A DNA stretch of 64,000 bases. It comes from an uncultured bacterium (GTDB lineage Bacteria; Omnitrophota; Gorgyraeia; Zapsychrales; Aceulaceae). The stretch is taken from assembly GCA_937930175.1 (NCBI GenBank), contig CALGLP010000006.1, forward strand, positions 65,749-129,748, read 5' to 3'. The position numbers were made by a program, and so were the translations under genes. The first letter of the stretch is position 1. Each line of letters starts with the position of its first letter. Below are positions 3,424-48,040 of the stretch, in pieces. Below the pieces are notes generated by a model. That model saw only the letters and a list, made by a program, of their open reading frames with translations, was not told the origin of the DNA and ran no database searches.

Positions 3424-3432
3424 GATACTCCA

Positions 3433-4865: not shown

Positions 4866-4896
4866 GTAAATAAATTTTAGAAAGGAAAATAGTTAA

Positions 4897-6087
4897 ATGT
4901 CCATAAATAAAACTCCAATGATTAAGATGAAGTTGATGCGGCGTAATTGTGAATGCTGCAACAGTAATGATATGGAGTTAGTTTGGTCAAGCCAGAGCGT
5001 GGTTAGGCGCGCTACGGCAACTTGGTTGTTTTCTGTTCGGGTGGTTGTTTGTCGTCAATGCGGATTCTGTTTTGCATCTCCAAGTCCGGACCCTAAAGAG
5101 TTAAACCGTTATTATGCTGACGGTCTTTCTGGTTGCAAAAGCATAGGGTTGCCTTATTCTATTGAGAGCCGAATTCCCGTGCTCTCACGTCATTGTTCTC
5201 CGTCGGGGATATTTGTTGAGGTTGGCGGTGATTGGTCCGATGAATTTCACAAGCGTTGCGCTGGATTATTTGGAAAAATGCTTAATGTTGAAATAGCCAA
5301 AGACGCGTCAGCCGATTATCGTAGCGTTGAAGAACTCCTTCCTGGATCTGTTGACGTATTGGCGCATTATGATGTCTTAGAGCATATTTCTGATATCAAG
5401 AAGTTTTTTCATGCTTGCCGCCGAGCGTTAAAAACGCATGGTATTATGGTCTGTGAAGTGCCAGATGTCCGGCTCTATCCTCGCAATCTTTTACTTTTGG
5501 AATTTGAACATGTTAATCATTTCTCCGCCACAACGCTAGCTACCATAGCTCAGGCATGCGGGTTTAAGTTAATAGAATTAGGCCATATTTGCAGCCGTCC
5601 CTATGGATTTGTTTCGGTCTTTCGAAAGACTCAGCCCTTGGAAGGTTTTTATCCTCCCATGCCATTTGAGTATCTAGATACACTTGCTTGCGTAAAAGGG
5701 GGTATTGAACAAATAGAGCGCTTATTGGCATCCATTAAATTACTTCAAATTAAAATAAATAAATTAACAGCGCAAGGAAAAAAAATAACTTTATGGGGAG
5801 TAACAGAAATGGTGCGCCGATTTTTAGAAAATTATCGGCTTCCTGATGATGCAATCATAGTAGACTCAGATCCGCGGCGTAAACTGCATTTGGAAAAGGA
5901 AGGGGTTTTAGTTCAATTGCCTATGGATTGCCGCGATCATATTGCGCAAAGCGAGTTAGTGGTCATTTTTGTTCCACGCTATAAAACAGAGATACTGGAA
6001 TGGATAAAAAAAGAAGTGGGAAAATTATCTGATGCCGTGGAAGTCGTCGTTATGGGCGGCGGCCCAAATGGCGAATCATTGACATAA
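4897..6087 (+). CDS. SAM-dependent C-methyltransferase-like protein (Zn-ribbon + class I MTase + C-terminal Methyltransf_14-like domain)
   Basis: N-terminal CxCC...CxxCxxC zinc ribbon, methyltransferase core (DVLEHISD), and a C-terminal Rossmann-like domain as in TylCIII-type sugar C-methyltransferases. Confidence 0.6.
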   Translation: MSINKTPMIKMKLMRRNCECCNSNDMELVWSSQSVVRRATATWLFSVRVVVCRQCGFCFASPSPDPKELNRYYADGLSGCKSIGLPYSIESRIPVLSRHCSPSGIFVEVGGDWSDEFHKRCAGLFGKMLNVEIAKDASADYRSVEELLPGSVDVLAHYDVLEHISDIKKFFHACRRALKTHGIMVCEVPDVRLYPRNLLLLEFEHVNHFSATTLATIAQACGFKLIELGHICSRPYGFVSVFRKTQPLEGFYPPMPFEYLDTLACVKGGIEQIERLLASIKLLQIKINKLTAQGKKITLWGVTEMVRRFLENYRLPDDAIIVDSDPRRKLHLEKEGVLVQLPMDCRDHIAQSELVVIFVPRYKTEILEWIKKEVGKLSDAVEVVVMGGGPNGESLT

Positions 6088-6101
6088 GGAGATATTCTAC
6101 A

Positions 6102-6983
6102 ATGAAAAAACCTAAAAAACGTACTCTTAAAAATCGTTTGATTTCCGGATTAAACAGTTTGCGCTTTGTGGCGACGGAGCCTGTGCTTTTGCGCATGGCG
6201 CGGATGAAATATGAAAAATTATATGCTGATCCGCAGTCAACACCACTGGTTAGTGTCTGTGTTCCAACTTATAATAGGGGAAAATTGTTGATCGAGCGTG
6301 CCGTTGCGTCTGTTTTATCCCAAACATATAGTAACCTTGAGCTGATTGTCGTTGGGGATCATTGCACTGACAATACCGCTGAATTGATCTCACAAATTAA
6401 AGATCCTCGGCTTCGTTTCTACAACCTTCCTGCGCGTCAAAGAAGTTATCCGCAGACCGTGGAAAATCACTGGTTTGTTGGTGGAGCCGTTCCCGCTAAC
6501 AAAGCTATGGACATGGCCCGTGGCCAATGGTTGGCGCGCGTAGATGATGATGATACCTGGACACCCGATCATATCGAGGTATTGTTGCGATTTGCTCAGC
6601 AAAATCAGTATGAATTTGTATCGAGCGCCTATGTTGCAGAACGGTTTGGAAAACAAGTCGTAGTTCAAGGAGAAGTGATGAGCGCGCATCATCCTCAGAA
6701 TAATGCGCCTTTAGCTGAAAATGGTCCCAAAATAGGCGGAGTTCAAACCTGGCTTTATCGTTCGTATCTTCGTTTTATGAAATACAATGTTGATTGTTGG
6801 CAAAAGAGCTGGAATTGTGTGTGGGATGTTGATCTTGCGCAGCGCATATACAAAGCAGGAGTGCGCATTGGCTTCATTGATCAAGTCTTGGCACACGTGT
6901 TGCCACGTCCTGGAGAATCGACCATAGGGTTGGAGGCTTACAGGCTTACGGAAGAAGAAAAGTTAAAGCAATACAAGTTTTAA
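6102..6983 (+). CDS. glycosyltransferase family 2
   Basis: VSVCVPTYNRG...LELIVVGDHCTDNT and DDDD motif; strong AAGGAG RBS. Confidence 0.85.
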   Translation: MKKPKKRTLKNRLISGLNSLRFVATEPVLLRMARMKYEKLYADPQSTPLVSVCVPTYNRGKLLIERAVASVLSQTYSNLELIVVGDHCTDNTAELISQIKDPRLRFYNLPARQRSYPQTVENHWFVGGAVPANKAMDMARGQWLARVDDDDTWTPDHIEVLLRFAQQNQYEFVSSAYVAERFGKQVVVQGEVMSAHHPQNNAPLAENGPKIGGVQTWLYRSYLRFMKYNVDCWQKSWNCVWDVDLAQRIYKAGVRIGFIDQVLAHVLPRPGESTIGLEAYRLTEEEKLKQYKF

Positions 6984-7024
6984 ACCATTCTTTCAGTCAA
7001 TTTATTTTAACTTTGTGATAAAAT

Positions 7025-7741
7025 ATGGGGGGGTATATGGGAAAAACAAATAATGTTGTGATCGTTGGCGCATCATCAAGCATTGGAAGATCTGTTGTTG
7101 ATCAATTTCAACCATCATCAAAGCATATTATTGCATCCTATTTATCAAAACAGCATATGAAGCCTAAGGAGAACGTATCCTTTCTCAAGCTTGATTTAAG
7201 CATAGATAAAAGCATAGGAAGCTTTGTAAAGGAAGTCCACTCGGTCATGCCCCATCTTGACACTTTAATTTTTCTCGCAGGAATATTGCCAGGAAAGAAT
7301 CTTCGCGAGTATCAGCCAGAAGATATTGAGAAGGTAATGACTGTTAATTTTACTGGTCAAGCAAAAGTCATCAAAGGCTTGTTGCCCTTGCTTGATGCAT
7401 CGTCGCAGATCATCATGGTTTCGTCCATATCAGCTCAAAAGGGAAGTTATGATCCTATTTATTCAGCCTCGAAAGGAGCTATTTTATCTTTTGTAAAATC
7501 TCTTTCGTCTGGGTTGGGTGGAGTTCGTGTCAACGCCATAGCTCCTGGGTTGATCGAGGAGAGTACTATGGCAAGGGAAATGTCCGCATCAAGGAGAGAA
7601 TTCCATCGGCAACAAACGTCCAGCAAAGAATTATTGTCAATGTCAGACTTGGCCCAAGTTATTTTTGATGTCTCACAAAAACATTGGAAGCATATGAACG
7701 GCGCATGCATTGATTTAAATGGAGGACAATATGTCAGGTAA
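7025..7741 (+). CDS. SDR family oxidoreductase
   Basis: VVIVGASSSIGRS glycine-rich motif and YSASKGA catalytic motif. Confidence 0.8.
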   Translation: MGGYMGKTNNVVIVGASSSIGRSVVDQFQPSSKHIIASYLSKQHMKPKENVSFLKLDLSIDKSIGSFVKEVHSVMPHLDTLIFLAGILPGKNLREYQPEDIEKVMTVNFTGQAKVIKGLLPLLDASSQIIMVSSISAQKGSYDPIYSASKGAILSFVKSLSSGLGGVRVNAIAPGLIEESTMAREMSASRREFHRQQTSSKELLSMSDLAQVIFDVSQKHWKHMNGACIDLNGGQYVR

Positions 7742-8858
7742 TCATAAAAAAGTAGCTGTTGTCGGCGCAGGCGTTTTTGGCTGCAATGTCGCCTTAGCCA
7801 TTGCTCAGTCAGGCTACCAGGTGACGCTGTTTGAACGGTTGCCTGATATTGTTATGGGTACTACCAAGAATAATACAAATCGAGTTCATCAAGGGTTTCA
7901 TTATCCTCGCAATAGACATACGGCCATCGAATGCAGGGACAATTATAAAAGATTCGAAGTGGAATTTAAAGAGGCTTTGCTGGGGCATCATCCCAATATT
8001 TATTGTATCGCTCAAGAAAAATCATTAACAACAAAGGACGAGTTTATCAAATTTATTGATTCTGTCGGCCTTTCGTATTCCGCGATCGATTTAAAGAGTT
8101 TTCGCACTGAAATCAATGGCTGTAGTTTAGGTATTTTTTGCCAGGAGACGATTCTTGATTCAGATGTGCTGAGGCAAATTCTCCGTTTACGCATATTAAA
8201 CAATAAACAGGTGACATTGTCATGCAACGCTGATGTATCTATCATCAAGAAAATCGCAGATCATTATGTCTTGTCTTTTCGTGATGAAAAAAAGCCAAGC
8301 CAGTCCTTTGATGCTGTTGTTAATTGTTCCTATGCCAATATCAATACTCTGACCGAGCAGCTAGGACACGAAGTCCACGAGGAACAATACGAATATACGA
8401 TCGTTCCGATCATCAGTTTGGATTTGCCCCCAACATCGATCACGATCATGGACGGTCCGTTCATGACCCTTTTCCCTTATGGTAAAACAAATAAATTTTT
8501 GTTGTATCATGTAGAGTATTCTGTTCTTAAACGAGAAATTGCCAAAAAATTAAATCCTGATTGGCTTGACCCGCACAAAGCACCGTTTAGCAGCATGGAT
8601 CAAGTGAAATATTTTGATACCATGATCAAAGCCTGTAGCCAGTATGTTCCTGCTCTCGCCCATGCAACATTATGCGGATATCTTGAAGCGCCACGCATGG
8701 TCCTTCCGAAGCACGAGAAGGATGACGCGCGGCCATCCTTTATCAATGACTACGGTGAAGGGTATTTAACTGTTTTCTCGGGCAAGATCGATCGCAGCTT
8801 ATCCATCGCAGACTCTGTGTGCCTTAAAATAAAAAATTATTTTGCAAAAAAGAATTGA
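7731..8858 (+). CDS. FAD/NAD(P)-binding oxidoreductase
   Basis: KVAVVGAGVFGCNVALAIAQSGYQVTLFE dinucleotide-binding fold. GGAGGA RBS before ATG 7731; the ORF track gives 7719. Confidence 0.65.
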   Translation: MSGNHKKVAVVGAGVFGCNVALAIAQSGYQVTLFERLPDIVMGTTKNNTNRVHQGFHYPRNRHTAIECRDNYKRFEVEFKEALLGHHPNIYCIAQEKSLTTKDEFIKFIDSVGLSYSAIDLKSFRTEINGCSLGIFCQETILDSDVLRQILRLRILNNKQVTLSCNADVSIIKKIADHYVLSFRDEKKPSQSFDAVVNCSYANINTLTEQLGHEVHEEQYEYTIVPIISLDLPPTSITIMDGPFMTLFPYGKTNKFLLYHVEYSVLKREIAKKLNPDWLDPHKAPFSSMDQVKYFDTMIKACSQYVPALAHATLCGYLEAPRMVLPKHEKDDARPSFINDYGEGYLTVFSGKIDRSLSIADSVCLKIKNYFAKKN

Positions 8859-12125: not shown

Positions 12126-15100
12126 ATGAAAATGCATGAAAAAATTTGCACATTTTTATATCACTTTGGCGTTGTGCTCTTGGTTTATCTGACCGGCATC
12201 ACGTTGGTGTTTTTGAGCTATCAATATTGGCAGCAGAATAGCCGCTTAAGCATTGATGCCGACCATGGGTGTAAAATTGTTTTTACGCCTCGCACTAAAA
12301 CGCGCCCAAGCATAAGCGCCTTGACCGTTGATTTGAAAGCGCTTGGGAAAAATCCTGGTTCTTTGATGTTTCGCCTAAGGCGAGTAAGCCTTGGAACAAC
12401 AAATGGAGCTTACAACTGGGACTGGAAGGGAGCGCCTCTACAGTCTGATTTTAGTTTTGTTGATATGACGAAAATGATACGCCAGGAGGCTAAGGTTACC
12501 TCATGGGATGTCGTTGTAGCCAAGCCAGGCATGGTTCGCCTTAAGATTTGGCAAGATCTAGGAGATAGATGGAGCGTTGTTGCTCAAACAGATAAGGTTA
12601 TGGCCATGTCGGGCCTCAATCATTTTATCCTTAAAGACCCTTTGCCCGTGCGTCCAGGTGATTTTTTGGGGCTTTATACAGCCGTAGGCACGATCAAACT
12701 AGTTTCACTCTCGAGGCTTGGCGTGTCTGAAGATTTAGCTAACCAAGATCTTTCTAATATTGATCATGCGAGGGAGCGTGGGCTGCAAGTGAATTTTTCT
12801 GGTGATGAGGATTTTGGGCTCAAGAGTTCTTCTGTTGCGGCACCAAATCCAGGATATGCTTTCAAAGTTAATTTATCATCAATTCCGATCCAAGAATCCA
12901 AGTGTCAAGTTCAACTAGGACGTTCTTTTTATAAGTTTGAAATCGCAGATCAAACATTTGCTGTTGATGAACAGGTAGAATTGTTCATTGAAGCCAGGGA
13001 GCGAACTCGGGTATTGATATATCCTCATTTTTTGTGGCGCTTGAGCGGCCCTCATGCGTATGTGGGATTAGAATTCAATACTCCATTTAAACCTAAGGGC
13101 GTAGATCAAGTTTTATATTCTCAAAAGAAATCAATTTTTAACGTTCTCATTATTCTTCTAGCCATTGTCAGTGGCCTTTTTATGTTTGTTCCTCGGAGAA
13201 GAATGCGGGAGCCAGCCTTGGCTGCTTTTCCAATCGTCGTTGCTGTAATGATAGGGAAGGGATCGATTATTGCGCATCCGATTCTGCAGTCAACCCCAGC
13301 CGTATTAGCCTTTTTATTTCTACCAGGTTATGTTGTTCTGGAATTAGCCTTTCCTTTTTTGGCACAAAAAATGGGAAAGATTGAGCGTCCGCCACTTCTT
13401 TTTGGGCTTAGCCTGGCTGTTTGGACAGTTATTGCTATTCCGTCTTATTGGGCGCAGTGGAGCGCCGCATGGGTCATAGCTGGCATGCTTTTAGCTTGCT
13501 TGATCGGCGTTATAATAATGATTTGCTTGAGGCCTGTTTGTTCATCCTCGTCGGTTGTTTCTGATAGCTCGCTGCCAGCGTTTCCTTTCAGGCGTGTATA
13601 TGTCGCGATCCTTGTAGCAGTTTTGATTATCGTGGCTGTAGCCGTAGGCTTTAGGTCTCAATTTATGCGCGCTGACTTTGACACCATTACACATTTGGCG
13701 GGTTTTCAAAGGATCGTTCATCTTGATCGCATTATGGGCGGCAATCCTTTTTTAGAACCAGGCAAGACCGCCTTGTTTCATTATGCGTCTAATCCGTGGT
13801 ATCTGGTTTGCGGATTGACTGCTCGGTTGGCCCATATTGAGGCGTTTTGGTTGTACAGTATTCTTGCAGCTTTATTGACAGTCCTGGCGTTTATGGCATT
13901 TTTATGCTTGTTGTATATTCTAATCAATGACATGCGCGTTGCTTTCATTGGGACTTTTTTGGCAGTATTGTTTTCGCTGTATGGGTGGGCAACGGATTGG
14001 GCAGGATGTTATAGTTTTTATTTGGAGTTTATTTCTTATCCGCACACATTGGACCAACTTATTATGTGGCCGCTTGTGCTTTTTTGCGTATTGAGATATG
14101 TAAGGTTTAAGGACATGAATAGCTTGGGTTTAACGGCGCTGATTGCTCTTGCCACGATGGGTCAGCACGTTCTGTTTATCGTTTGGGTCGTCGGCATAAC
14201 GAGTTTGATACTTGTCGTCACGATGTTTTTTCGTGATTTCAAGAAGGATAGGCTTCGCACGCTAATGCTTATCGTGATCATCCTAGCAAGCGCAGCTGTC
14301 GTGGCTTTTTTTATGTTGAAATTTCCTTTGGCAGGCCACATGAAAAAAAAGGCAGCAGAAGAAATAGCAGGATGGGCTAAGCTCAAAGGGATGTCGTTTT
14401 ATTTTAAGACATTGTATGCTGCGGATATTCATTACCTTGGCAAAGAAGGATGGAAGCAGGTTCTTGGATTCGCGGTTATTATTTTTTATACCTGTGTCTT
14501 GAGTTGTCAAAAGCTAAAGCTATGCGTGCCTCACAAAGCAGATCAACATTTTCTTATTGTTGTGGGCGTTGCTCTTTTTGGGCCCTATCTTGTTATTTTT
14601 AATCCTTTTATCGTTCCTTGGATTTGTCAGTTGTTTCATTGGCCGCAGGTTATTTATCGATGGCCTAATCTTGTCGCGCTGCCCAATGCTGTGGCCTATG
14701 GGGCAATGGCATGTGTTCTTGTTCTTTGTTTTCAAGCCAAGAGTAAATGGTCTAAAGCTTTTTATATTTTTCCTTTGATTGTTTGTTTTACTCTTGGAGC
14801 CTATCCTTTTTTCAATCCATCTCTTAGGAAAACCTTGGCCAGCGCTTTAGACAATCGGGGCTGGTATCCGAGCATGTTTGACCTTGCCCATGATCCCTTA
14901 TACCAGAGCCTTGGCCATCTCAAGCCAGGAGTTGTGGCAATCGAGCGGCCTAAAACCGGATATGTTGTAGCGCTCACGCATCATTATTTAGTTGCAGGAC
15001 ATTATAATACCAATAGCGTTGTATTTTCTCTCGAAGATGAACAGTCCTTAGCCAAGCGATGGTCTGATAATCAAAAGATCTTGGATTTTGAGATGACGGC

Positions 15101-15257
15101 TCAGCAGATGCGTCAACTCCTCGATGAGTATCACTGCAAATATGTGGTTGTTTCAAGGAGCTCGCCTAGGCTTAACCAATTTATGGCTAGTGCAGATTTA
15201 TTTGATCTGATCTTAAAAACAGAAACAGATTTTCTTTTTTCTGTTAAACGAACATGA
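12126..15257 (+). CDS. large polytopic membrane protein (1043 aa), putative GT-C type glycosyltransferase/polymerase
   Basis: N-terminal TM, about 300-aa soluble domain, about 15 TM helices and about 150-aa C-terminal soluble domain. No recognisable catalytic motif. Immediately upstream of a GtrB/Dpm1-like polyprenyl-phosphate sugar synthase. Confidence 0.5.
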   Translation: MKMHEKICTFLYHFGVVLLVYLTGITLVFLSYQYWQQNSRLSIDADHGCKIVFTPRTKTRPSISALTVDLKALGKNPGSLMFRLRRVSLGTTNGAYNWDWKGAPLQSDFSFVDMTKMIRQEAKVTSWDVVVAKPGMVRLKIWQDLGDRWSVVAQTDKVMAMSGLNHFILKDPLPVRPGDFLGLYTAVGTIKLVSLSRLGVSEDLANQDLSNIDHARERGLQVNFSGDEDFGLKSSSVAAPNPGYAFKVNLSSIPIQESKCQVQLGRSFYKFEIADQTFAVDEQVELFIEARERTRVLIYPHFLWRLSGPHAYVGLEFNTPFKPKGVDQVLYSQKKSIFNVLIILLAIVSGLFMFVPRRRMREPALAAFPIVVAVMIGKGSIIAHPILQSTPAVLAFLFLPGYVVLELAFPFLAQKMGKIERPPLLFGLSLAVWTVIAIPSYWAQWSAAWVIAGMLLACLIGVIIMICLRPVCSSSSVVSDSSLPAFPFRRVYVAILVAVLIIVAVAVGFRSQFMRADFDTITHLAGFQRIVHLDRIMGGNPFLEPGKTALFHYASNPWYLVCGLTARLAHIEAFWLYSILAALLTVLAFMAFLCLLYILINDMRVAFIGTFLAVLFSLYGWATDWAGCYSFYLEFISYPHTLDQLIMWPLVLFCVLRYVRFKDMNSLGLTALIALATMGQHVLFIVWVVGITSLILVVTMFFRDFKKDRLRTLMLIVIILASAAVVAFFMLKFPLAGHMKKKAAEEIAGWAKLKGMSFYFKTLYAADIHYLGKEGWKQVLGFAVIIFYTCVLSCQKLKLCVPHKADQHFLIVVGVALFGPYLVIFNPFIVPWICQLFHWPQVIYRWPNLVALPNAVAYGAMACVLVLCFQAKSKWSKAFYIFPLIVCFTLGAYPFFNPSLRKTLASALDNRGWYPSMFDLAHDPLYQSLGHLKPGVVAIERPKTGYVVALTHHYLVAGHYNTNSVVFSLEDEQSLAKRWSDNQKILDFEMTAQQMRQLLDEYHCKYVVVSRSSPRLNQFMASADLFDLILKTETDFLFSVKRT

Positions 15258-24705: not shown

Positions 24706-26199
24706 ATGAAAGTACAGTTAATATTAGCGCCGCCTAGTACTCCGCATAAAGAAGGGGAACTTAACGAACGGATCGCGCCGCCTTTGGGTATTCTTTATCT
24801 AGCGTCTTATTTGCGAAAAAATATGGCGGGTATCGAATTATCGATCATTGATGGCCAAATCGAGGGTTTTGAAGGAACCATTTCTCAGATTAATCATTTT
24901 GGCCCTGATATCTTAGGCATATCGGTTCATACGCTTGTTGCTAACGGAGCCTATGAAGTTGCTCGACGGATCAAAAAAGAGCACCCGCAGACATTGGTCA
25001 TCATGGGTGGTTGTCATTGCACTGGTTTTCCGGAAGATGTGATCAAAAAATCAGGAGCAGATTTGGTGTGCGTTGGTGAGGGAGAGCAAACGATGCTTGA
25101 AGTCACCCAGACCTTTAGCCGCAAACAGGGAAATCTTTCAAGCGTTGATTTTTCTAAAGTCGACGGTTTAGTCTACAGCAATAAGGGAGAGATTATTTAT
25201 ACCAAACCGCGGCAATTCATCGAAGACCTCGATACCATTCCTTTTCCTGCCAGGGATTTGGTTGATTTGAAAGATTATTCTGGATGGTATATTACAAAAC
25301 GTTTACCGGAAACAAGAATCATGTCTACTCGGGGATGCCCGTTTCATTGCACGTTTTGTTCTTGCGCGGTATGGAAATCCTCCAAGCCGGCCACAAGAGT
25401 GCGCTCTGCTAAGAATGTTGTTGACGAGATCGAGCAGCTTATGACAGATTACGGTATCCGTGAATTTGGCGATGATTGCGATGAATACAACTGCAACATC
25501 AAGGTCGCTTCCGAAACATGCAAAGAAATCATGAGAAGAAAGCTGGATATTCCCTGGAGGTCGCAGGTCAGAGCCTATCCTTTGCCTGATGATTTTGTGC
25601 GTTTAATGGCGCAGTCAGGCTGCTGGCAGGTTCATATGGGCATTGAAAGCGGAAACGAAAGAACATTAAAAGGGATCGGCAAGAATATAACACTTCAGCA
25701 GGTCGAAGATGGATGCCGGATGCTTCGCAAATATAACATCGAAGTTGTTGGCATGTTCATGTTGTATAACGTGTGGGAAGAAGAGGGAAATTTGTGTTTT
25801 GAAAACACAAAGGAAACCAAGCAGACCATGGAATATGCGCTCAAGCTTTATAAACAAGGTCTGCTTAATCAGTTTATGTGGGGACCGACCAATCCTTATC
25901 CAGGAAGCAAGCTCTTTGAGATTGCTCGTCAGAGAAATTTGATCAAGGACTCTTTGTTAGATGACTGGGAGGCCTGGCGAAGAGATGAGCTCTATGCCAT
26001 GAAGCTTCCAGGCGTCGATGTTGTTGAGCAGACAAGGATGAGGACAGTAGGGCAATTTTTGAAACTGAAACACCTTTTGTCTTCAAAAGGAAGATTCAAT
26101 ATCAAAGATTGGAAGTATTTTGCGGAAAAAGGTCTTCGGATTGTTAAAGATGAAATCCACGCGATGAGGGAAAAGAAGAAAAGCAAACTTCTTAAATAA
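24706..26199 (+). CDS. B12-binding domain radical SAM protein (class B radical SAM)
   Basis: N-terminal cobalamin-binding fold followed by the CPFHCTFCS CxxxCxxC radical SAM motif; AAAGGAA RBS. Confidence 0.85.
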   Translation: MKVQLILAPPSTPHKEGELNERIAPPLGILYLASYLRKNMAGIELSIIDGQIEGFEGTISQINHFGPDILGISVHTLVANGAYEVARRIKKEHPQTLVIMGGCHCTGFPEDVIKKSGADLVCVGEGEQTMLEVTQTFSRKQGNLSSVDFSKVDGLVYSNKGEIIYTKPRQFIEDLDTIPFPARDLVDLKDYSGWYITKRLPETRIMSTRGCPFHCTFCSCAVWKSSKPATRVRSAKNVVDEIEQLMTDYGIREFGDDCDEYNCNIKVASETCKEIMRRKLDIPWRSQVRAYPLPDDFVRLMAQSGCWQVHMGIESGNERTLKGIGKNITLQQVEDGCRMLRKYNIEVVGMFMLYNVWEEEGNLCFENTKETKQTMEYALKLYKQGLLNQFMWGPTNPYPGSKLFEIARQRNLIKDSLLDDWEAWRRDELYAMKLPGVDVVEQTRMRTVGQFLKLKHLLSSKGRFNIKDWKYFAEKGLRIVKDEIHAMREKKKSKLLK

Positions 26200-27118: not shown

Positions 27119-28066
27119 ATGTCTTTGCTTGTTACGGGCGCGGATGGTTTTATAGGCTCTGCCTTAGGTCATAAAATACTTGAAGATAATATAAAGGTAA
27201 AAGGAGTTGTCCAAACCTTAACAAATGTTTCAAGATTGCCAAAGGGCATTGAAATTGTTGAGATCAATGATATTTCTCAACAAGCGGATTGGACACAGGC
27301 TTTAACAGGAGTGGATGCGGTTATTCATTTGGCAGCGCGCGTTCATATTATTAAAGAATCTGCCGCAGATCCGCTTGAAGCTTTTCGCAAAACAAATGTG
27401 CTTGGCACAGAGCATTTCGCGAGAATGGCTGCAAAGGCAGGGGTTAAGCGATTTCTTTTTATGAGCTCAATCGGCGTTCATGGAGAAGCTAACCTGGGGA
27501 AACCTTTTACAGAAAAAGATGTTCCTTGTCCCGTGAGCGCGTATGCGATTTCAAAGTGGGAGGCAGAACAAGCCTTGCGCAAAGTGGCAGAGAATAGCAA
27601 AATGGAAGTTATTATTTTACGCTCACCTTTGGTTTATGGACCCGGCGCTCCAGGTCATTTTGCGCGATTAGTGCGCTTGGTGAAGAAGGGCGTTCCTTTG
27701 CCGTTAGGGCATATAAAGAATTTGCGTAGTTTTACTTATCTCGGTAATTTGATTGATGCCATAATGACTTGCATGCGACACCCTAAAGCGGCAGGTGAAA
27801 ATTTTTTGGTAAACGATGGTCAAGATGTGTCGACATCAGACTTGATCCAGATGATGGCAATAGCCATGAACAAGAAGGCGAATTTGTTTTCTATGCATCC
27901 TTTCATCTTAAAATTCTTGAGCAGGATCATTGGTAAAAGCCAAGAACTGGAGAAATTAACAGGAACGCTTGTTGTTGATAGTAGCAAGATCAGGAACGTG
28001 CTTGGGTGGAAACCACCGTTTACGATGGACGAGGGAATTCGGGAGAGCGTGGGACGTGAAACGTGA
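27119..28066 (+). CDS. NAD-dependent epimerase/dehydratase family protein
   Basis: LLVTGADGFIGSAL Rossmann motif; YAISKWEAE catalytic YxxxK. Confidence 0.85.
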   Translation: MSLLVTGADGFIGSALGHKILEDNIKVKGVVQTLTNVSRLPKGIEIVEINDISQQADWTQALTGVDAVIHLAARVHIIKESAADPLEAFRKTNVLGTEHFARMAAKAGVKRFLFMSSIGVHGEANLGKPFTEKDVPCPVSAYAISKWEAEQALRKVAENSKMEVIILRSPLVYGPGAPGHFARLVRLVKKGVPLPLGHIKNLRSFTYLGNLIDAIMTCMRHPKAAGENFLVNDGQDVSTSDLIQMMAIAMNKKANLFSMHPFILKFLSRIIGKSQELEKLTGTLVVDSSKIRNVLGWKPPFTMDEGIRESVGRET

Positions 28067-28118
28067 GACGTGAAGAGTGAATATGGTAAATTAAATAGTA
28101 TAATTTATGCAGACTAAT

Positions 28119-28211
28119 GATACCCTTTAGGGTGTATAAAACGAATACTTATGCTTCTTATAGTGCATTTATATGAATAAATTGTTGATATTATACCCTA
28201 AAGGTGATATA
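28119..28211. promoter_or_regulatory. two related palindromic sites (ATACCCTTTAGGGTGTAT and TATACCCTAAAGGTGATATA) plus a TATAAT box upstream of hipB-like gene
   Basis: Read directly: self-complementary ACCCTTTAGGGT at 28122-28133 and an inverted copy at 28193-28210 just before ATG 28220; TATAAT at 28100-28105. Confidence 0.4.
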
Positions 28212-28219
28212 TTTCTAAT

Positions 28220-28453
28220 ATGATAAGATTAGATATCTCTGAGAAGCATATGGTCAATATAGTTTCTCAAATAAAAGAATTGCGTAAGAAAATTGGATTA
28301 ACTCAAGTGGAATTTGCCAGGAGGGTCGGAGTTGGCTTGCGTTTTTTAAGGGAGCTTGAGCAAGGGAAGGCCACTGTGAGAATGGACAAGCTTGCGCGTG
28401 TTTTGGATTTTTTGGGATATCATTTGGAATTAAGGAAAAATGAGGTGAAATGA
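28220..28453 (+). CDS. hipB: HTH XRE-family antitoxin (HipB-like)
   Basis: 77-aa helix-turn-helix (LTQVEFARRVGVGLRFLRELEQGK); 4-nt ATGA overlap with the next gene. Confidence 0.75.
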   Translation: MIRLDISEKHMVNIVSQIKELRKKIGLTQVEFARRVGVGLRFLRELEQGKATVRMDKLARVLDFLGYHLELRKNEVK

Positions 28454-28785
28454 ATATGATGAGAAAAGCGGAAGTTTTTTATAGTGATGAATTGGCAGGC
28501 TATTTGACAGAGACGACAAGCGGATATACCTTTCAGTATGATCCTGAATTTTTAAAGAAAAATATCCCGATCGCCGTATCCTTGCCTCCTCGCGCAGAGC
28601 CTTATCAATCTAAAGAATTATTTCCATTCTTTAAGGGACTTTTACCTGAAGGGTGGTATTTAGATATTGTTAGCGCAGCGCAGAAAATTGACAGCAAAGA
28701 TTACTTTGGGTTGCTGATTGGCACTGCAAAGACGGACACAGCCGGTACTGTTACCATTCAGAAAGTTGATATGGTCCATGAATAA
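28450..28785 (+). CDS. hipS: HipA N-terminal-domain-like protein (HipS-like)
   Basis: 111 aa, resembles the N-terminal subdomain of HipA, encoded as a separate ORF. Its stop overlaps the next start (ATGAATAA). Confidence 0.65.
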   Translation: MNMMRKAEVFYSDELAGYLTETTSGYTFQYDPEFLKKNIPIAVSLPPRAEPYQSKELFPFFKGLLPEGWYLDIVSAAQKIDSKDYFGLLIGTAKTDTAGTVTIQKVDMVHE

Positions 28786-29635
28786 AAAGCTCTTGAAAGA
28801 GATGTTTCATTCTTCAAAATGGCCAAGCATAGACTTTGGCTTGGCAGATGTGTCGCAACAGGCGCAAAGATTAGCGGGGAAATTCTCTATTTCTGGTGTT
28901 CAGCCAAAGCTATCTGTCAAATTGGATAAAAAACAAAACATGCTCATTGTTGTTGGTGCGGGAGGAGAATATATTCTAAAACCGCAACAAACTTTTCTGC
29001 GTATCCCCGAGAATGAGCAATGCTGTATGGATCTTGCGCAAAAATTGGGCATCGAAGTTCCGCTCCATTGCCTTCTTCCTTTAAAGGATAAAAGCCTTGC
29101 CTATGTGGTCAAACGGTTTGATCGGGACAAAGGGGCTAAAATTCAGCAGGAAGATTTTGTTCAGATCCTTGGGGTCAATGATAAATACACAGGCTCGGTA
29201 GAACAAGTAGGCCGGAAACTAAAAGATATCTCCTCGGCGCCAGGATACGATGTTCAGCTTTTTTTTGATCGGGTTGTGCTTAACTTTATTCTCGGCAATG
29301 GTGATGCGCACTTAAAGAATTATGCGATATTATATAAAGAAGGGGGCATCCGATTAGCTCCAGCTTATGATATTGTGTGTTCAAGGCTGGTGATCCTTAA
29401 CGAGGACGAGTCCGCGATCAGCATTCATGGCAAAAAGAATCGTTTGCTGAGAGAGGATTTTGATCGTTTAGCTGAATATTTTAATGTACCGATCAAGGTG
29501 CGCTATGAACGGTTTGAAAAGAAGTTTAGCTTGATGAGAGAGATCATCACAGCTTCTCAGATGAGTGATGAAGATCAGGTGAGATTTCTTGATATTGTCA
29601 AAGAGAGGCTGAATCGGTTGCACATAGCCCAATAG
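28778..29635 (+). CDS. hipT: HipA-family Ser/Thr kinase core (HipT-like toxin)
   Basis: GVQPKLSV glycine-rich loop, VKRFDR catalytic region and LGNGDAHLKNYA motif (HipA GNxDxHxKN). Confidence 0.75.
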   Translation: MNKKLLKEMFHSSKWPSIDFGLADVSQQAQRLAGKFSISGVQPKLSVKLDKKQNMLIVVGAGGEYILKPQQTFLRIPENEQCCMDLAQKLGIEVPLHCLLPLKDKSLAYVVKRFDRDKGAKIQQEDFVQILGVNDKYTGSVEQVGRKLKDISSAPGYDVQLFFDRVVLNFILGNGDAHLKNYAILYKEGGIRLAPAYDIVCSRLVILNEDESAISIHGKKNRLLREDFDRLAEYFNVPIKVRYERFEKKFSLMREIITASQMSDEDQVRFLDIVKERLNRLHIAQ

Positions 29636-29707: not shown

Positions 29708-30283
29708 ATGCGGAGGATCATGCTTAAACGCATTTTTGATCTTATTTTAGCTGTATTCTTAATCGTTTTCTTTAGCCTTCCGATGTTGGTTGTCGCGGCA
29801 TGGATCAGATTGGGCTCTAAAGGCCCTGTTATCTTTTGGACAGATCGCGTTGGTATCAACAATGCTATTTTTAAGATGGCAAAGTTTCGGACGATGAGAA
29901 CCGATACGCCTCAAGTGGCAACACATTTGATGAAAGATCCTGAAAAGTATCTGATCCCCGGCGGAGAGCTTTTACGTAAATACAGCCTCGATGAACTTCC
30001 TCAATTATTGAATGTTCTCAAAGGGGATATGAGTTTTGTAGGTCCCAGACCTGCCTTGTTTAATCAAGATGATTTAGTGGCATTGCGCACACAAAAAGGT
30101 GTGCATGTTCTTGTTCCAGGCATAACAGGCTGGGCGCAAGTTAACGGCAGAGATGATCTGCCCATTCCTCTCAAAGCTTCTTTCGATGAATACTATCTCC
30201 ATCATCGTTCGCTTGCATTCGATCTTCGCATTCTTTTTCTCACGGCTTGGAAGGTTGTCAAAAAAGAAGGCGTGCAGCATTAA
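29708..30283 (+). CDS. polyprenyl-phosphate sugar-phosphate transferase (bacterial sugar transferase, PglC/WbaP C-terminal type)
   Basis: Single N-terminal TM then FRTM...DELPQLLNVLKGDMSFVGPRP motifs of the Bac_transf family. Alternative ATG at 29720. Confidence 0.85.
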   Translation: MRRIMLKRIFDLILAVFLIVFFSLPMLVVAAWIRLGSKGPVIFWTDRVGINNAIFKMAKFRTMRTDTPQVATHLMKDPEKYLIPGGELLRKYSLDELPQLLNVLKGDMSFVGPRPALFNQDDLVALRTQKGVHVLVPGITGWAQVNGRDDLPIPLKASFDEYYLHHRSLAFDLRILFLTAWKVVKKEGVQH

Positions 30284-30514: not shown

Positions 30515-31624
30515 ATGAAACGATATTTAGAGCCTCAGATCATAAAAGATCTTGGCCGGAAAATGGTGTTTTTAGGTGGCCCACGCCAAGTCGGGAAGAC
30601 GACGCTTGCGCTTGATATCGTGAAAGACACATCATCCTATTTGAATTGGGATGTGGCTGAGCATCGCGAGAGAATCCTTAAGCGCGAACTTCCGATATCA
30701 AAAACTTTAGTTTTTGATGAAATTCATAAATACCGCGGTTGGCGCAACTATCTTAAGGGCCTCTTTGATCTTTATCGAGGGGCAAAGAGAATCCTCGTTA
30801 CGGGAAGCGCCCGCTTGGATTTGTATCGTTTTGGCGGAGATTCTCTGCAAGGGCGTTATCATTATTTGCGACTGCATCCATTATCGGCCGCCGAGCTTAA
30901 AATACGTACTTCTAAAGCGTTGATGGACCTTCTTGAGCTGGGTGGTTTTCCTGAGCCTTTTTTGCAAGGATCACAGGTGGAAGCCAAGCGCTGGTCTAGG
31001 GAATATCGCGCGCGTCTTTTGAGAGAAGACGTAGCTTCTCTAGAGAGAGTTGAAGATCTTGGTCGTCTTGAACTTTTGATGCTGCGCCTTCCTGAACTTG
31101 TTGGCAGTCCGCTTTCGATCAACGCCCTTCGTGAAGATCTTCAGGTAAGTTTTAAAGCTGTTGCAAGCTGGATCAATATCCTCGAAAGGACGTATGCAGT
31201 TTTCCGCCTTTCTCCGATTGGTGCGCCACGCATACGCGCGGTAAAAAAAGAACAAAAGCACTATCATTTTGATTGGTCCCTTATTCCTGACAAGGCAAAG
31301 CGTTTTGAAAACATGATCGCTTCACATCTTTTGAAATGGGTTCATTTTGAGCAAGATACAAAAGGACGCGATATTGAACTTAATTATTTTCGTGATATCG
31401 ATGGACGAGAAGTTGATTTTGTGATCGTTGACAATGGCAATCCAGTCTTTCTTGTTGAATGCAAATGGTCAGACGACCAAGTTTCGAAATCTTTAAGATA
31501 TCTTAAGGCGAAGTATCCCAAAGCTGCGGCTTGGCAGTTACATATGACGGGAACAAAAGACTATGAGGCGCCTGAAGATATTCGCGTTGCCCCTGCTACG
31601 GTATTTTTAAAAGATCTTGTTTAA
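30515..31624 (+). CDS. AAA-type ATPase (DUF4143 family ATP-binding protein)
   Basis: Walker A GGPRQVGKTT near the N-terminus; length and overall pattern match DUF4143 ATPases. Confidence 0.7.
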   Translation: MKRYLEPQIIKDLGRKMVFLGGPRQVGKTTLALDIVKDTSSYLNWDVAEHRERILKRELPISKTLVFDEIHKYRGWRNYLKGLFDLYRGAKRILVTGSARLDLYRFGGDSLQGRYHYLRLHPLSAAELKIRTSKALMDLLELGGFPEPFLQGSQVEAKRWSREYRARLLREDVASLERVEDLGRLELLMLRLPELVGSPLSINALREDLQVSFKAVASWINILERTYAVFRLSPIGAPRIRAVKKEQKHYHFDWSLIPDKAKRFENMIASHLLKWVHFEQDTKGRDIELNYFRDIDGREVDFVIVDNGNPVFLVECKWSDDQVSKSLRYLKAKYPKAAAWQLHMTGTKDYEAPEDIRVAPATVFLKDLV

Positions 31625-31934
31625 ACACAATATTGTTAAGGTTAGCCTTATCATTTTCTGGACAGGTTACGTTAATTGCAAAAAAGTGATCTTCAGAATG
31701 GTAGGATGAAGACTATGCACCATCGTGTAATAAGGTCCTGACTTTTTTACGCCATGGTGTATATTTTTATTATGGATAAATTGCTGGCAACTGTATGTTT
31801 GACACTTTTCTTGTGTCTTGCAGAATAATACCGTTGCTTTTGATATTCATGAATTTTATAAGCTGAATTGAGGTCTACTATGTATGAAAAGTTTCTCTTT
31901 TTATCTTTTGATGTGTTAAAAAGGGGAGCAGTAT

Positions 31935-32021
31935 AGATTTCTTGTTGTTGATAGCCGTAAGATTCGTCATATGTTGGTCTGGAAGCCATCGTTTATCATG
32001 GAGGAGGGAATCAGGAAAAGT
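31935..32021 (+). pseudogene. 3' remnant of an NAD-dependent epimerase gene
   Basis: Translates FLVVDSRKIRHMLVWKPSFIMEEGIRKSI*, colinear with the C-terminus TLVVDSSKIRNVLGWKPPFTMDEGIRESV of the epimerase at 27119-28066. No upstream ORF. Confidence 0.65.
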
Positions 32022-32116
32022 ATTTAGCATGCAGGATGGCGGATAGCTTCCGCCTTCGCCGCAGGCTTTGGCGGACAAAGATAGCGTAGAGTGTTGAGCG
32101 GATAGTGTATAGAGAT

Positions 32117-32149
32117 TAGTGAATAGTGAAGGTCTTAAGTCCAAAGTTC
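32117..32149. repeat. intergenic repeat copy B (TAGTGAATAGTGAAGG TCTTAAGTCCAAAGTTC)
   Basis: Same core as 30295-30337, followed by the related AAGTCTAAAGTCC. Confidence 0.55.
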
Positions 32150-32241
32150 TAAGTTCGGAAGTCTAAAGTCCGAGATTCTGATTGGAAAGTTTTTGATTGG
32201 ATCAGTTGCTAAAATCATTTCCTCATATATAATATATTCTT

Positions 32242-45076: not shown

Positions 45077-45718
45077 CTATTTAGTGCATTGATAGTTTGG
45101 GTCGTCAAGTTCGCAGGGAAATGAATTGTCTGTATGAATATCATTACAGACAGGGTAATCTCTGATTCCGTGATAATCAGTGCTTCCAACATCAACACAT
45201 TTTGAATTAGAAGCCCAAGGATCAATATATAGACTCTCAGGACTGCCGGATGATGTTATTTTAAATTGATAATCGATTCTCCACATCTGTTCACAGCCAG
45301 CTGGTTCTTCGTTGACACAGCGAAAGGCAAAGCAGTAAATGGTATCTTTCTGTCTGCGACAGCGAAAGCGCACGTCGCCTCCATTGTCCCATGCTTGTCC
45401 AATCCCCATGTCAAAACGTGACCCAAGATCAGCAGTTGATCCAACGATTGACGAGGAGTTCCAGCAGACATCTCCTCCTCCCGGACAGTTAGTGGTGAAA
45501 TATTCTTCATCTTTATAGCTAGCGCACTGCGTTGGCAGCATAGAACATGCAAGTGTTTGCAATCGAGTGACAGCTTGGGCAAGATTATCGCCTTCACCCT
45601 CAACAGAAGGAACACTTTCACTTTCTGCGTTTTGGACATTAAAAATGAAAAAAGTTAAAACAAGAATGAAAAGAAAGAAAAATCTTAATTTTTGGAAATT
45701 ATTCTTTTGAGATCTCAT
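45077..45718 (-). CDS. secreted Cys-rich protein (12 Cys), unknown function
   Basis: Own AGGAGA RBS 6 nt before ATG (minus-strand 45718). Signal peptide MRSQKNNFQKLRFFFLFILVLTFFIFNVQNA. Mature part is rich in C, G, D and N. In frame with the upstream gene, with no stop codon between them. Confidence 0.6.
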   Translation of the reverse strand: MRSQKNNFQKLRFFFLFILVLTFFIFNVQNAESESVPSVEGEGDNLAQAVTRLQTLACSMLPTQCASYKDEEYFTTNCPGGGDVCWNSSSIVGSTADLGSRFDMGIGQAWDNGGDVRFRCRRQKDTIYCFAFRCVNEEPAGCEQMWRIDYQFKITSSGSPESLYIDPWASNSKCVDVGSTDYHGIRDYPVCNDIHTDNSFPCELDDPNYQCTK

Positions 45719-48040
45719 TTTTTTCTCCTGATCGTTTTTTATTTTAAGTGCTTTTAAAACTTTCTCCGGCGTGATAGGAAGGTCTTTGATGCGCACGCCG
45801 ACGGCGTCTTCGATGGCGTTGGCGATGGCGGCCGCGGTAGGCAAAAGCGCTGCCTCACCCATGCCCTTGGCGCCAAAGGGGCCTTGTGGGTCATTGGTCT
45901 CGATCAAGATTGATTCAACTGGACAGGCACTGATCGAGCGCGCCAAGCGGTAGTTGGCAAAATTGGGGTTGACCACGCGCCCATCTTTAAACTGAAGATT
46001 TTCCCAAAGCGTGTACCCGATTCCCATAAAAAGTGAGCCTTCGATCTGGCCTTTGACCGATTGCGGGTTGATGGCGCGACCCACATCATGGGCATCCCAC
46101 ATTTTCAAGACCTTGACGTGACCGGTTTCGGTATTGACCTCGACCTCGGCTATTTGCGCTTCAAAACTGTAACTTCCTGAGACATTGCCCTCCCCTGTTC
46201 TAAAATCAACCGGCGTTGTCTTGGGGTTATAGCTCCCCCGGCCAATAATTTGTGTTCCGTAGTTAAAGGAATAGCAAAGCTCTACGGCTTTATCAAAGGT
46301 CATGACAACAGAGTTTGTTTGGGTGTTGATGACTTGTTCAGCTTGGATATCCAAGATGTTCACATCTAAATTTTTCTCATGGGCCACAATGTCAAGAATC
46401 TGACGCTTGGCATCAGCGGCCGCGAGCTTGGTGGCATTTCCAGAAATAAAGGTCACGCGGCTGGCAAAGCTTCCGGTGTCAAAGGGTGTGATGGCCGTAT
46501 CCGCAGCTGTAATGCGAATGCGATTGTAGCTTATGCCAAGCTCTTGGGCGGCGATCTGTGAAAGAACGGTATTTGAGCCTTGTCCAGTATCCGCAGCGCC
46601 TGTTAGGACATAGACCGAGGCATCCTCCTCGACCTTGATCACGGTGCCAGCGGATTCGTGGGATTTGTACATCTTTGAACCCATGACATCCGCGGCAATG
46701 CCGATGCCAAGCCCGCGCCTAACATGTTTTTGTTTGCCGTGTCTTTGTTTCCACTGACAGCTTTCCGCGGCTTTCTCAATGCACTCTTTGAGGCCATTAG
46801 AGGAGAGGATCATTTTGTTGACGGTGACCATGTTGGGCTCAGTAATATTTTTAAGGCGAAAGGCAACAGGATCCATGCCGATGCCTTGGGCGAGCAAGTC
46901 GATATGCGATTCCACAGCAAAGCCGGATTGCACGCCTCCAAAGCCTCTGATCGCGCCGCTAATAGGATTGTTGGTATAGACCCGATAGCCTGTAATTTTT
47001 AAGTTTTGAATTTTGTAAACCATCATGATGCGCATCATGGATGCGGCCAAGACCGTTGGCCCATAGCTGCAATAGGCGCCTCCGTCGGCAATGACTTCGC
47101 CAGAGATGGCCATGAGGGTCCCGTCTTTTTTGACCCCGGACTTGAGTCGGTAAATCATGGGGTGTTTGCGACGAGAAAAAGAAAACTCTTCTTCGCGGGT
47201 GTACATGATCTTGACCGGCGCACCTTTTGCTTTTTTGGACAAAAGACAAGCTGCGAAATCCATGGGGAGCATTTCAAGTTTTCCGCCAAAGCCACCGCCT
47301 ACCGCAAGTTTGATCACGCGTACATCATTGAGGTTCATATGCAAACATTTGGCAAGGGTTTCTCGGATTTTAAATGGGGCTTGGGTGGAGACCCAAAGTG
47401 TCACTTTTTGCGTATGCTCTTCCCATTGTCCGATGCAGACATGGGGCTCCAGGCATGTATGCGCAGCGGAAGGAAGATAAAACGTGTCCTCGCGCACGTA
47501 GTCAGATTCTTTGAGCGCACGCTCGACATTGCCGAAATTGGTTGGCAGGATGAGGGCGATATTGTTGCGCGCCTCATGAATTTGAGGCGCGCCAGGCTTC
47601 ATGGCTTCTAAGGCGTCAAAGACTGCAGGCAAGATTTCATAGTGGACGTCGATGAGCTTTAAAGCGCGCTCGGCTGTTTCTTCATCCACGGCCGCGACCG
47701 CAGCGATTTCATCGCCAATGTAGCGCACCTTATCCGCTTCCAGGGCTTGTTGGTCCGCGGTTTGTGGGAAAAAATATTCATTGGAACCAAACTTGACGCC
47801 TAAGGTGTCCTTGGCCGTGATAATGGCCTTGACTCCGTGGAGCTCTTCAGCTTTAGAGGTGTCAATTTTCAAGATCTTGGCATGCGCATGAGGACTGCGC
47901 AGCATTTTACCAAACAGCATTCCAGGAAGAACAAGATCCGAAACGTATTTTGTTTGGCCCGTGACAAAACCTCGGCCGTCAATGCGCGGGACATTCTTGC
48001 CAACAGGATTGAGGGATAAGGGATCGTTATTATTTTTCAT
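45719..48040 (-). CDS. xanthine dehydrogenase family molybdopterin-binding (large) subunit
   Basis: N-terminal a/b hammerhead domain (VPRIDGRGFVTGQTKYVSDL), about 770 aa of aldehyde oxidase/xanthine dehydrogenase large-subunit architecture. No in-frame stop before the downstream Cys-rich ORF. Confidence 0.85.

Follow-up and report, generated by a model that had tools for sequence, protein, structure and literature searches.

The 64,000-nt stretch of contig CALGLP010000006.1 (GCA_937930175.1) analysed here, referred to as the window, derives from a member of the Candidatus Omnitrophota, a phylum of uncultured, very small and possibly host-dependent bacteria. At positions 28220-29635 of the forward strand, the window carries three same-strand genes, hipB, hipS and hipT, which overlap or abut one another and form a genuine HipB-HipS-HipT (HipBST) toxin-antitoxin module, that is, a system of known type and not a new kind of system. 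We consider it about 85% probable that this module is a functional tripartite type II toxin-antitoxin operon belonging to the Legionella-like subclade of HipBST systems. All sequence-level hallmarks of HipBST are present: the gene order, a kinase without the N-subdomain-1 of HipA, the kinase motifs, a stand-alone HipS and a helix-turn-helix (HTH) protein HipB. The initial annotation of this DNA had described three translationally coupled genes encoding proteins of 77, 111 and 285 amino acids (aa) and had interpreted them as a split-HipA arrangement of the HipBST kind. The three open reading frames (ORFs) are present as described (Table 1), and domain architecture, gene order, translational coupling and the best structure matches all agree with that interpretation.

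Protein identity and gene structure

HipB matches the Pfam family HTH_3 (E-value 1.4e-11) and the NCBIfam model TIGR03070 (couple_hipB, 3.6e-21), the latter with 74.9 bits and thus above the curated cut-off of 71.65. In a search against all PDB sequences, its top match is HipB of Legionella pneumophila (HipB(Lp), 8ezt, 3.7e-8), and the protein therefore fits the HipB/Y4mF class of HTH proteins. HipS is recognized by the Pfam profile of the HipA N-terminal domain, Couple_hipA (PF13657, 2.8e-24); its matches among the PDB sequences are HI_0666 of Haemophilus influenzae (6e-16), HipS(Lp) (2.7e-13, 41% identity), HipS of Escherichia coli O127 (HipS(Ec), 2e-11, 33% identity) and residues 6-104 of HipA (2.4e-4). 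HipT is matched in Pfam by HipA_C alone (5e-47). It aligns with HipT(Lp) over 264 residues, corresponding to residues 18-282 of 285 (4e-45, 37.9% identity), with HipT(Ec) over residues 16-201 only (2.6e-22) and with HipA at an E-value of 1.8e-6. The alignments start at around residue 165-199 of HipA (4pu5, 3tpd) and cover residues 35-309 of HipT(Lp), so that N-subdomain-1 is missing from the kinase. Judged by sequence, the best solved-structure matches of all three proteins are HipBST components of L. pneumophila, H. influenzae and E. coli O127. The initial annotation had named a lack of homology to HipA domains in profile searches as a possible objection to its proposal, which is removed by the matches to Couple_hipA and HipA_C. 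No further copy of HipA, HipT or HipS was found in the window.

The AlphaFold2 model of HipS is of moderate quality, with a predicted local distance difference test (pLDDT) score of 64 and values below 50 for residues 69-96. In a Foldseek search against the PDB, all 13 matches with an E-value below 0.01 were either HipS chains or the N-terminal subdomain of HipA. TM-scores to HipS were around 0.5-0.6 with a high root mean square deviation at full length, and a good superposition on HipA was obtained for the N-terminal 65 residues only (2.5-2.9 Å). At this resolution, the model appears to bear out the initially noted resemblance of the 111-aa protein to the N-terminal subdomain of HipA.

The three genes are tightly packed. 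The start of hipS overlaps the end of hipB via an ATGA motif, and the ATG of hipT sits inside the last codons of hipS, resulting in an 8-nt overlap of two different frames (ATGAATAA). Alternative starts exist for two of the genes. An in-frame ATG at 28250 shortens HipB to 67 aa and is the choice of the gene callers on two identical contigs, while an ATG at 28456, preceded by GAGGTG at 28443-28448, reduces HipS to 109 aa. The exact 109-aa protein is present in public collections; many HipS homologs have 111 aa. The start of hipT at 28778 is backed by the N-terminal consensus MNEKFLKEMF of 43 homologs, which favours it over a 305-aa ORF in the mechanical ORF list that begins with a TTG at 28718 and is not likely to be the gene. 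On the opposite strand of the module, only two short ORFs of 50 and 54 aa are found, and nothing marks either of them as a gene.

Conservation of the split kinase

HipS and HipT are jointly colinear with HipA and their genes overlap by 8 nt in different frames, both of which fit a scenario in which the 111-aa and 285-aa ORFs are parts of one hipA gene broken by a frameshift or a sequencing error, and the locus is a decayed or mis-assembled bipartite hipBA operon. The initial annotation had itself pointed to this alternative. To it are opposed 62 related loci recovered from a scan of species-representative genomes, with kinases that are 58-78% identical to HipT; nearly all of these loci stem from metagenome-assembled genomes of Candidatus Omnitrophota. 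The order hipB-hipS-hipT is kept in all 61 related loci that have upstream DNA, and every hipS is terminated by a stop codon. The junctions between hipS and hipT vary: an 8-nt overlap occurs in 18 loci, a distance of +8 nt in ten and of +5 nt in eight, with a range from -20 to +197 nt, and relative to hipS, hipT lies in frame +1 in 30 loci, in frame +2 in 27 and in frame 0 in four. Among the matches listed for HipS, 120 of 120 are stand-alone proteins of 103-126 aa that contain PF13657 only.

Furthermore, the exact HipT sequence of the window is present on eight contigs from independent samples, which makes an assembly error at the hipS/hipT junction very unlikely. The ratios of non-synonymous to synonymous substitutions (dN/dS) in comparison to two close relatives are 0.10-0.11 for hipS, 0.09-0.11 for hipT and 0.16 for hipB, the last determined against a single relative, L063; all three genes are under purifying selection. 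HipT is also far more similar to the split kinase HipT(Lp) than to HipA (4e-45 versus 1.8e-6), and the true fused HipA encoded next to hipBST in L063 shares no more than 32-33% identity with the proteins of the window. Conserved splitting, varied junctions, stand-alone HipS homologs, identical contigs and low dN/dS values together refute the broken-gene hypothesis, to which we assign practically no probability. An assignment to bipartite HipBA was likewise rejected, as hipS ends in a stop codon and the split recurs in 61 loci, where junctions and frames differ.

Conserved residues and relationship to characterized Hip systems

Functional residues known from the E. coli HipBST system can be traced in HipS and HipT. 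The PEGW motif of HipS is invariant in 42 homologs, and its Glu and Trp align with E63 and W65 of HipS(Ec). [quoted passage not shown] The Gly-rich loop of HipT contains a Ser-Ile-Ser motif that is conserved across the 62 clade members; its E. coli counterpart, which reads A57-I-S59 in the S57A crystal chain 7ab3_C, holds the autophosphorylation sites S57 and S59 (PMC10627512). The GNGDAHLKN motif, correctly picked out in the initial annotation as catalytic, aligns with LGNNDMHLRN of HipT(Ec), which holds the catalytic Asp210 (PMC10627512), and with GNEDMHLKN of HipT(Lp), and residues N174-Y182 are invariant in 44 sequences. PAYD aligns with PVYD of HipT(Ec) and PAYD of HipT(Lp); P195, A196 and D198 are invariant in the clade, and the Asp of the E. 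coli motif, the counterpart of Asp198, is presumed to be Asp233, which binds Mg (PMC10627512). In addition, an R113-x-D-R116 (RxDR) motif is invariant or nearly so in the clade and aligns with the corresponding motif of E. coli HipT.

The closest characterized relative is the HipBST system of L. pneumophila (Lpg2368-2370; PDB 8ezr/8ezs/8ezt, 7vkb, 7wcf), which consists of the same three genes in the same order. It provides the top match for HipT and HipB and the second PDB match for HipS, and its HipB is similarly short (around 76 aa). Placement in the Legionella subclade of Lin et al. 2023 is based on pairwise match scores and identities. By these measures, the module is much closer to that subclade than to the E. 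coli O127 type; for HipS, the score against HI_0666 slightly exceeds that against HipS(Lp), although percent identity is highest to the latter. Several differences from the Legionella system were also found. The loop of HipT(Lp) reads S-V-Q where the window HipT has S-I-S, HipS(Lp) lacks the Trp of the PEGW motif and does not depend on that position (PMC10653801), and the window HipT is 27 residues shorter than HipT(Lp), mostly at its N-terminus.

The system of enteropathogenic E. coli O127:H6 (PDB 7ab3-7ab5) was the comparison drawn in the initial annotation. The likeness holds for the tripartite split-HipA architecture and extends to the S-psi-S loop (S57/S59 corresponding to S37/S39), the aligned D210 and D233 motifs and the kept equivalents of Glu63 and Trp65 in HipS. 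It does not hold for overall sequence similarity, which is much weaker than to Legionella: HipT(Ec), a protein of 335 aa, is matched over part of HipT only, whereas HipT(Lp) is matched over nearly its full length, and membership in the E. coli O127 subclade was therefore rejected. On sequence grounds, the window system combines a Legionella-like backbone with two features of the E. coli type, the S-I-S loop and the HipS Trp. A member of the Legionella-like subclade can thus carry both traits that have been published for the E. coli type, and this combination might be useful for picking residues in studies of HipT inhibition by HipS.

Other Hip kinases are more distant. The bipartite HipBA systems (E. 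coli K-12 HipA with 440 aa; Shewanella HipA) share the kinase motifs and, as in the window, encode a presumably autoregulatory HTH protein HipB upstream of the kinase. However, they have N-subdomain-1 and kinase in one polypeptide, and HipB acts as the antitoxin, whereas in the window the subdomain is a separate, conserved gene. The hipJS, hipIN and HipL families likewise pair a small kinase of the HipA-core type with a HipS-like gene or domain, but this part is located downstream of or fused to the kinase, often together with a HIRAN domain, and a hipB gene upstream has not been described for them (PMC8262856). The window module differs from these families by its hipB-hipS-hipT order and has no HIRAN domain.

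Palindromes and a promoter-like site upstream of hipB

Two imperfect palindromes, 73 nt apart from start to start, are located in the 153-nt spacer that precedes hipB; the proximal one overlaps a promoter-like site (Table 1). In 59 homologous loci, the motif ACCYT-N2-4-ARGGT was searched in the 200 nt upstream of hipB and elsewhere in those loci. It occurs 69 times in 11.75 kb upstream of hipB (5.87 per kb) and four times in 535 kb elsewhere (0.0075 per kb), an enrichment of around 780-fold for the palindrome TATACCYT-N2-4-ARGGTATA upstream of hipB. At least one site is carried by 41 of the 59 loci, often two to four. The start-to-start spacing has its mode at 31 nt, which corresponds to around three helical turns, and values of 62, 72-73 and 81-83 nt are also found. 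The right half-site frequently merges with a TATAAT-like -10 element. Legionella HipB has been shown to bind three operators, each an 18-nt inverted repeat, with gaps of 53 bp between them and with O1 overlapping the promoter (PMC10653801). As far as the layout is concerned, the window and Legionella have in common 18-nt inverted repeats upstream of hipB, one of them overlapping the promoter or, in the window, the promoter-like site, with start-to-start distances of 73 and 71 nt, respectively; the modal spacing of 31 nt in the Omnitrophota clade differs from the 71 nt of Legionella. Autoregulation of the operon by HipB through these palindromes would be the natural expectation, and the predicted binding fits the overlap with the promoter-like site. 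We propose TATACCYT-N2-4-ARGGTATA with 31-nt phasing as a candidate HipB operator consensus for the Omnitrophota clade.

Proposed mode of action

By homology to the E. coli and Legionella systems (PMC6581861, PMC10627512, PMC9325769, PMC10653801), we infer toxicity and autophosphorylation of HipT, neutralization by HipS, DNA binding by HipB and the class of target. Free HipT would act as a HipA-core Ser/Thr kinase that phosphorylates an essential cellular protein and thereby arrests growth; the target would most likely be a translation factor such as an aminoacyl-tRNA synthetase. HipS, the detached N-subdomain-1 of HipA, is predicted to bind HipT beside the Gly-rich loop, probably by inserting its conserved Trp, and to hold the loop in an ejected state in which ATP could not bind, and it is thus proposed to act as the antitoxin. 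Ser37 and Ser39 of HipT are likely autophosphorylation sites, which might tune both its activity and the binding of HipS. HipB, as a dimeric HTH protein, would bind both palindromes and repress the operon, and it probably joins HipT in a ternary complex.

Several points weigh against reading the module as a functional operon that works in this way. For toxicity, neutralization and DNA binding, the proposal relies on extrapolation from proteins with 33-41% identity. The AlphaFold2 model of HipT, obtained with 44 close homologs, has a mean pLDDT of 49 and is unusable because the alignment is too shallow, with all members being at least 68% identical, and support for the kinase fold therefore comes only from sequence alignment. 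The number of promoter-like sites in the region is not above that of shuffled controls; what supports the site upstream of hipB is its position and its overlap with the conserved palindrome. Finally, the nearest characterized system, that of Legionella, does not use a Trp in HipS, has an S-V-Q loop and has no validated target, which makes it uncertain in detail which published mechanism applies. The tryptophanyl-tRNA synthetase TrpS is the target of HipT in E. coli, Haemophilus and Tolumonas, but the toxicity of Legionella HipT is rescued by neither TrpS nor GltX, and TrpS cannot be assumed to be the target of the window HipT.

A variable slot within a glycan locus

The module is located inside a co-directional gene cluster of around 40 kb. 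In the annotated part (about 21.3-38 kb), genes for Wzy_C, DUF218, a GT4 glycosyltransferase, a B12-binding radical SAM enzyme, a GT2 glycosyltransferase and an epimerase precede hipBST, which is followed by Bac_transf, AAA_14/DUF4143, a CapD/PglF-like dehydratase, further Wzy_C genes and GT9. The Pfam matches of the two flanking genes confirm the previously proposed position of the module between an epimerase and a PglC-like initiating transferase.

Table 1. Features of the hipBST module and its surroundings; positions refer to the window.
Feature	Position	Strand	Remarks
hipB	28220-28453	+	XRE-type HTH protein, 77 aa
hipS	28450-28785	+	stand-alone HipA N-subdomain-1 protein, 111 aa; putative antitoxin
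hipT	28778-29635	+	HipA-core Ser/Thr kinase without N-subdomain-1, 285 aa; putative toxin
HipS PEGW motif, Glu-Gly-Trp codons	28648-28656	+	E67/W69 (111-aa numbering), E65/W67 (109-aa numbering)
HipT Gly-rich loop KFSISGVQPK, Ser37-Ile38-Ser39	28886-28894	+	aligned with E. coli HipT 57-59
HipT catalytic motif GNGDAHLKN, residues 173-181	29294-29320	+	Asp176 at 29303-29305
HipT Mg-binding motif PAYD	29360-29371	+	Asp198 at 29369-29371
Distal operator-like palindrome ATACCCTTTAGGGTGTAT	28120-28137		inverted repeat; core ACCCTTTAGGGT, 28122-28133
Proximal operator-like palindrome TATACCCTAAAGGTGATA	28192-28209		core 28195-28205; between -35 and -10
Promoter-like site TTGATA-17 nt-TATATT	28185-28213	+	TG before the -10 hexamer; 10/12 consensus match
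NAD-dependent sugar epimerase/dehydratase	27119-28066	+	upstream slot boundary; Pfam Epimerase 5.5e-38
Bac_transf (PglC-like) initiating sugar transferase	29708-30283	+	downstream slot boundary; Pfam Bac_transf 2.2e-56
AAA_14/DUF4143 ATPase	30515-31624	+	AAA_14 3.4e-23, DUF4143 6.7e-24; PADLOC candidate PDC-S01 7.8e-46
Degenerate copy of the epimerase 3' end	31941-32027	+	28 codons, then stop; just upstream of the CapD-like gene

None of the 62 genome loci shows flank synteny with the window; syntenic relatives emerged only when the CapD-like gene and the closest HipT homolog were used as anchors. Three close relatives, L063, L067 and L068, share the glycan backbone, with CapD-like proteins that are 82-83%, Bac_transf proteins that are 76-81% and epimerases that are 50-62% identical. 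The slot that lies between epimerase and Bac_transf is occupied by hipBST in the window and filled differently in each of these relatives. In L063, it contains AAA_14/DUF4143, a bipartite hipBA with a 407-aa kinase, DUF1016-SNase, hipBST (HipT 88% identical) and a second AAA_14/DUF4143. L067 has a deacetylase, a methyltransferase, DUF1016-SNase and hipBST (HipT 93% identical) at this site, and L068 has RhuM, AAA_14/DUF4143, DUF1016-SNase and an AbiEi/AbiEii pair but no hipBST. The slot is thus a variable accessory islet, in which hipBST is one of several interchangeable cassettes of the toxin-antitoxin or defence type. This supports the earlier suggestion that the module is an insertion into a surface-polysaccharide operon, and hipBST is not part of the glycan pathway.

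Some details of these loci may be added. The hipBA operon of L063 (GCA_028693815.1, JAQUUP010000015.1, 6673-8120) encodes a 78-aa HTH protein and a fused Couple_hipA/HipA_C kinase and is located 1.3 kb upstream of the hipBST ortholog, and fused and split Hip kinases can therefore coexist. The slot of L068 (JGI 3300022868, Ga0222697_1000108) spans 2838-8313; RhuM and AAA_14/DUF4143 correspond to the PADLOC candidates PDC-S05 and PDC-S01, the CapD-like protein is 83% identical, and a second DUF1016-SNase/Bac_transf/CapD unit is located downstream on the same contig. In the window, the AAA_14/DUF4143 ATPase gene is the second non-glycan gene of the locus, with the initiating transferase gene on one side and the CapD-like gene on the other. 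It is unrelated to the copies of the relatives, which occupy other positions in the same slot; the L063 copy, for instance, shares 24% identity with it and is found on the opposite side of Bac_transf.

A degenerate copy of the epimerase 3' end lies within a spacer of low GC content (0.33) at 31625-32241. It matches epimerase residues 284-311 with 68% in tblastn and positions 27968-28038 with 75% over 71 nt in blastn (E-value 5e-10). Together with the intact 3' end of the epimerase gene, the remnant brackets hipBST, Bac_transf and the ATPase gene, which suggests an old rearrangement or cassette exchange. The GC content of the module (0.38-0.43) gives no signal of insertion, as it is the same as that of the flanks, and no integrase or transposase gene was seen adjoining the module in the window.

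Possible biological roles

Since the module is co-directional with and tightly packed in the glycan operon, and the interval from hipT to Bac_transf contains no terminator-like site, HipT might be a regulatory kinase of the polysaccharide pathway, which phosphorylates, for example, the initiating transferase or a polymerase, and not a toxin. This is highly improbable. Homologous modules with 58-78% identity occur in unrelated contexts in 61 loci, where glycan genes are rare among the neighbours, L068 has the same glycan genes with AbiE in place of hipBST, and the module is equipped with a promoter-like site and operator motifs of its own.

If HipT is taken as a toxin that is held in check by HipS, the same machinery could serve in abortive-infection phage defence: infection would free HipT, the kinase-mediated arrest would abort the infection, and the module would be one cassette of a defence islet. 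Such an anti-phage role is possible but speculative, and we rate it well below even odds. It is suggested by the neighbourhood, that is, by the AbiEi/AbiEii, RhuM (PDC-S05), AAA_14/DUF4143 (PDC-S01) and DUF1016-SNase genes in the slot of the relatives, the last of which match PDC-S02 weakly, and by the PDC-S01 homolog 0.9 kb downstream of the module in the window. In addition, HipT and HipS weakly match the PADLOC candidates PDC-M03A/B (1.9e-8 and 2.2e-6), and a different system with a HipA-family kinase, HipAD or DS-6, has been validated in phage defence (PMC13092281). However, the PADLOC matches are weak and concern candidates; a match of the module to a validated defence system was not obtained. 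No report of phage defence by any HipBST system was found in the literature searched, and genes of the defence type are a small minority among the heterogeneous neighbours of the 61 other loci.

Selfish maintenance is an equally good reading. The module would then be an addictive element that stabilizes itself and the variable glycan region and has no dedicated physiological or defence role, a proposal that is about as tentative as that of phage defence. It is in line with a flanking context that is not conserved across the 61 loci, with the presence of two hipBST loci in each of two assemblies, with the epimerase remnant as a sign of past rearrangement at the site, and with the conservation of the hipBST proteins among close relatives, which are 85-93% identical in comparison to 50-83% for the flanking proteins. 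The lack of adjoining mobility genes in the window and the unchanged GC content speak against it, and stabilization by chromosomal toxin-antitoxin modules is hard to tell from defence by sequence alone.

A more far-reaching reading would see in the slot upstream of the initiating glycosyltransferase a dedicated hotspot, at which hipBST, hipBA, AbiE, the PDC-S01 ATPase, the DUF1016 nuclease and RhuM are swapped, and at the same time in the Omnitrophota HipBST clade, which is very large and highly conserved, a hybrid, maybe with a kinase target of its own. We regard this combination as rather unlikely. If it were true, anti-phage suicide modules would be physically coupled to the genes that make a likely phage receptor.

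Distribution in Omnitrophota

The Omnitrophota clade is large, with 3648 database proteins at an E-value below 1e-10, and the 62 loci described above were recovered at the species level. Around the 61 loci other than that of the window, 103 immediate ORFs match 127 Pfam families, of which AAA_14/DUF4143 (4), Fic (3), DUF1016_N (3) and GAF (3) are recurrent. Heterogeneous neighbours and non-conserved flanks are the pattern expected of an autonomous, mobile toxin-antitoxin unit. The two assemblies with two hipBST loci each are JAHIKK01 (L016 and L029) and CAYING01 (L015 and L056), so that the module is present in multiple copies in some Omnitrophota genomes; in L015, hipT is directly followed by an AAA_14/DUF4143 gene.

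A published survey, as quoted in PMC10627512, comprises 48 HipT orthologs (Gerdes et al. 2021), and 86 representatives of the Legionella type have been described, which are concentrated in the FCB group (PMC10653801). In the HipBST literature searched, no discussion of a large Omnitrophota clade was found. The metagenomic data extend the HipBST family of split kinases into Candidatus Omnitrophota, where it is abundant. The findings leave the current understanding of the family unchanged, and only three points go beyond routine annotation: the candidate operator motif, the mixed configuration of loop and Trp, and the glycan-operon slot with its changing cassettes. The slot provides a small, concrete case in which accessory suicide modules lie within surface-polysaccharide loci.

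Two further observations concern the rest of the window. The B12-binding radical SAM enzyme (497 aa, 24706-26199, forward strand) is encoded amid the glycosyltransferase genes of the polysaccharide locus, and the ORF list contains large ORFs elsewhere, namely one of 1043 aa at 12126-15257 on the forward strand and one of 987 aa at 45077-48040 on the reverse strand.

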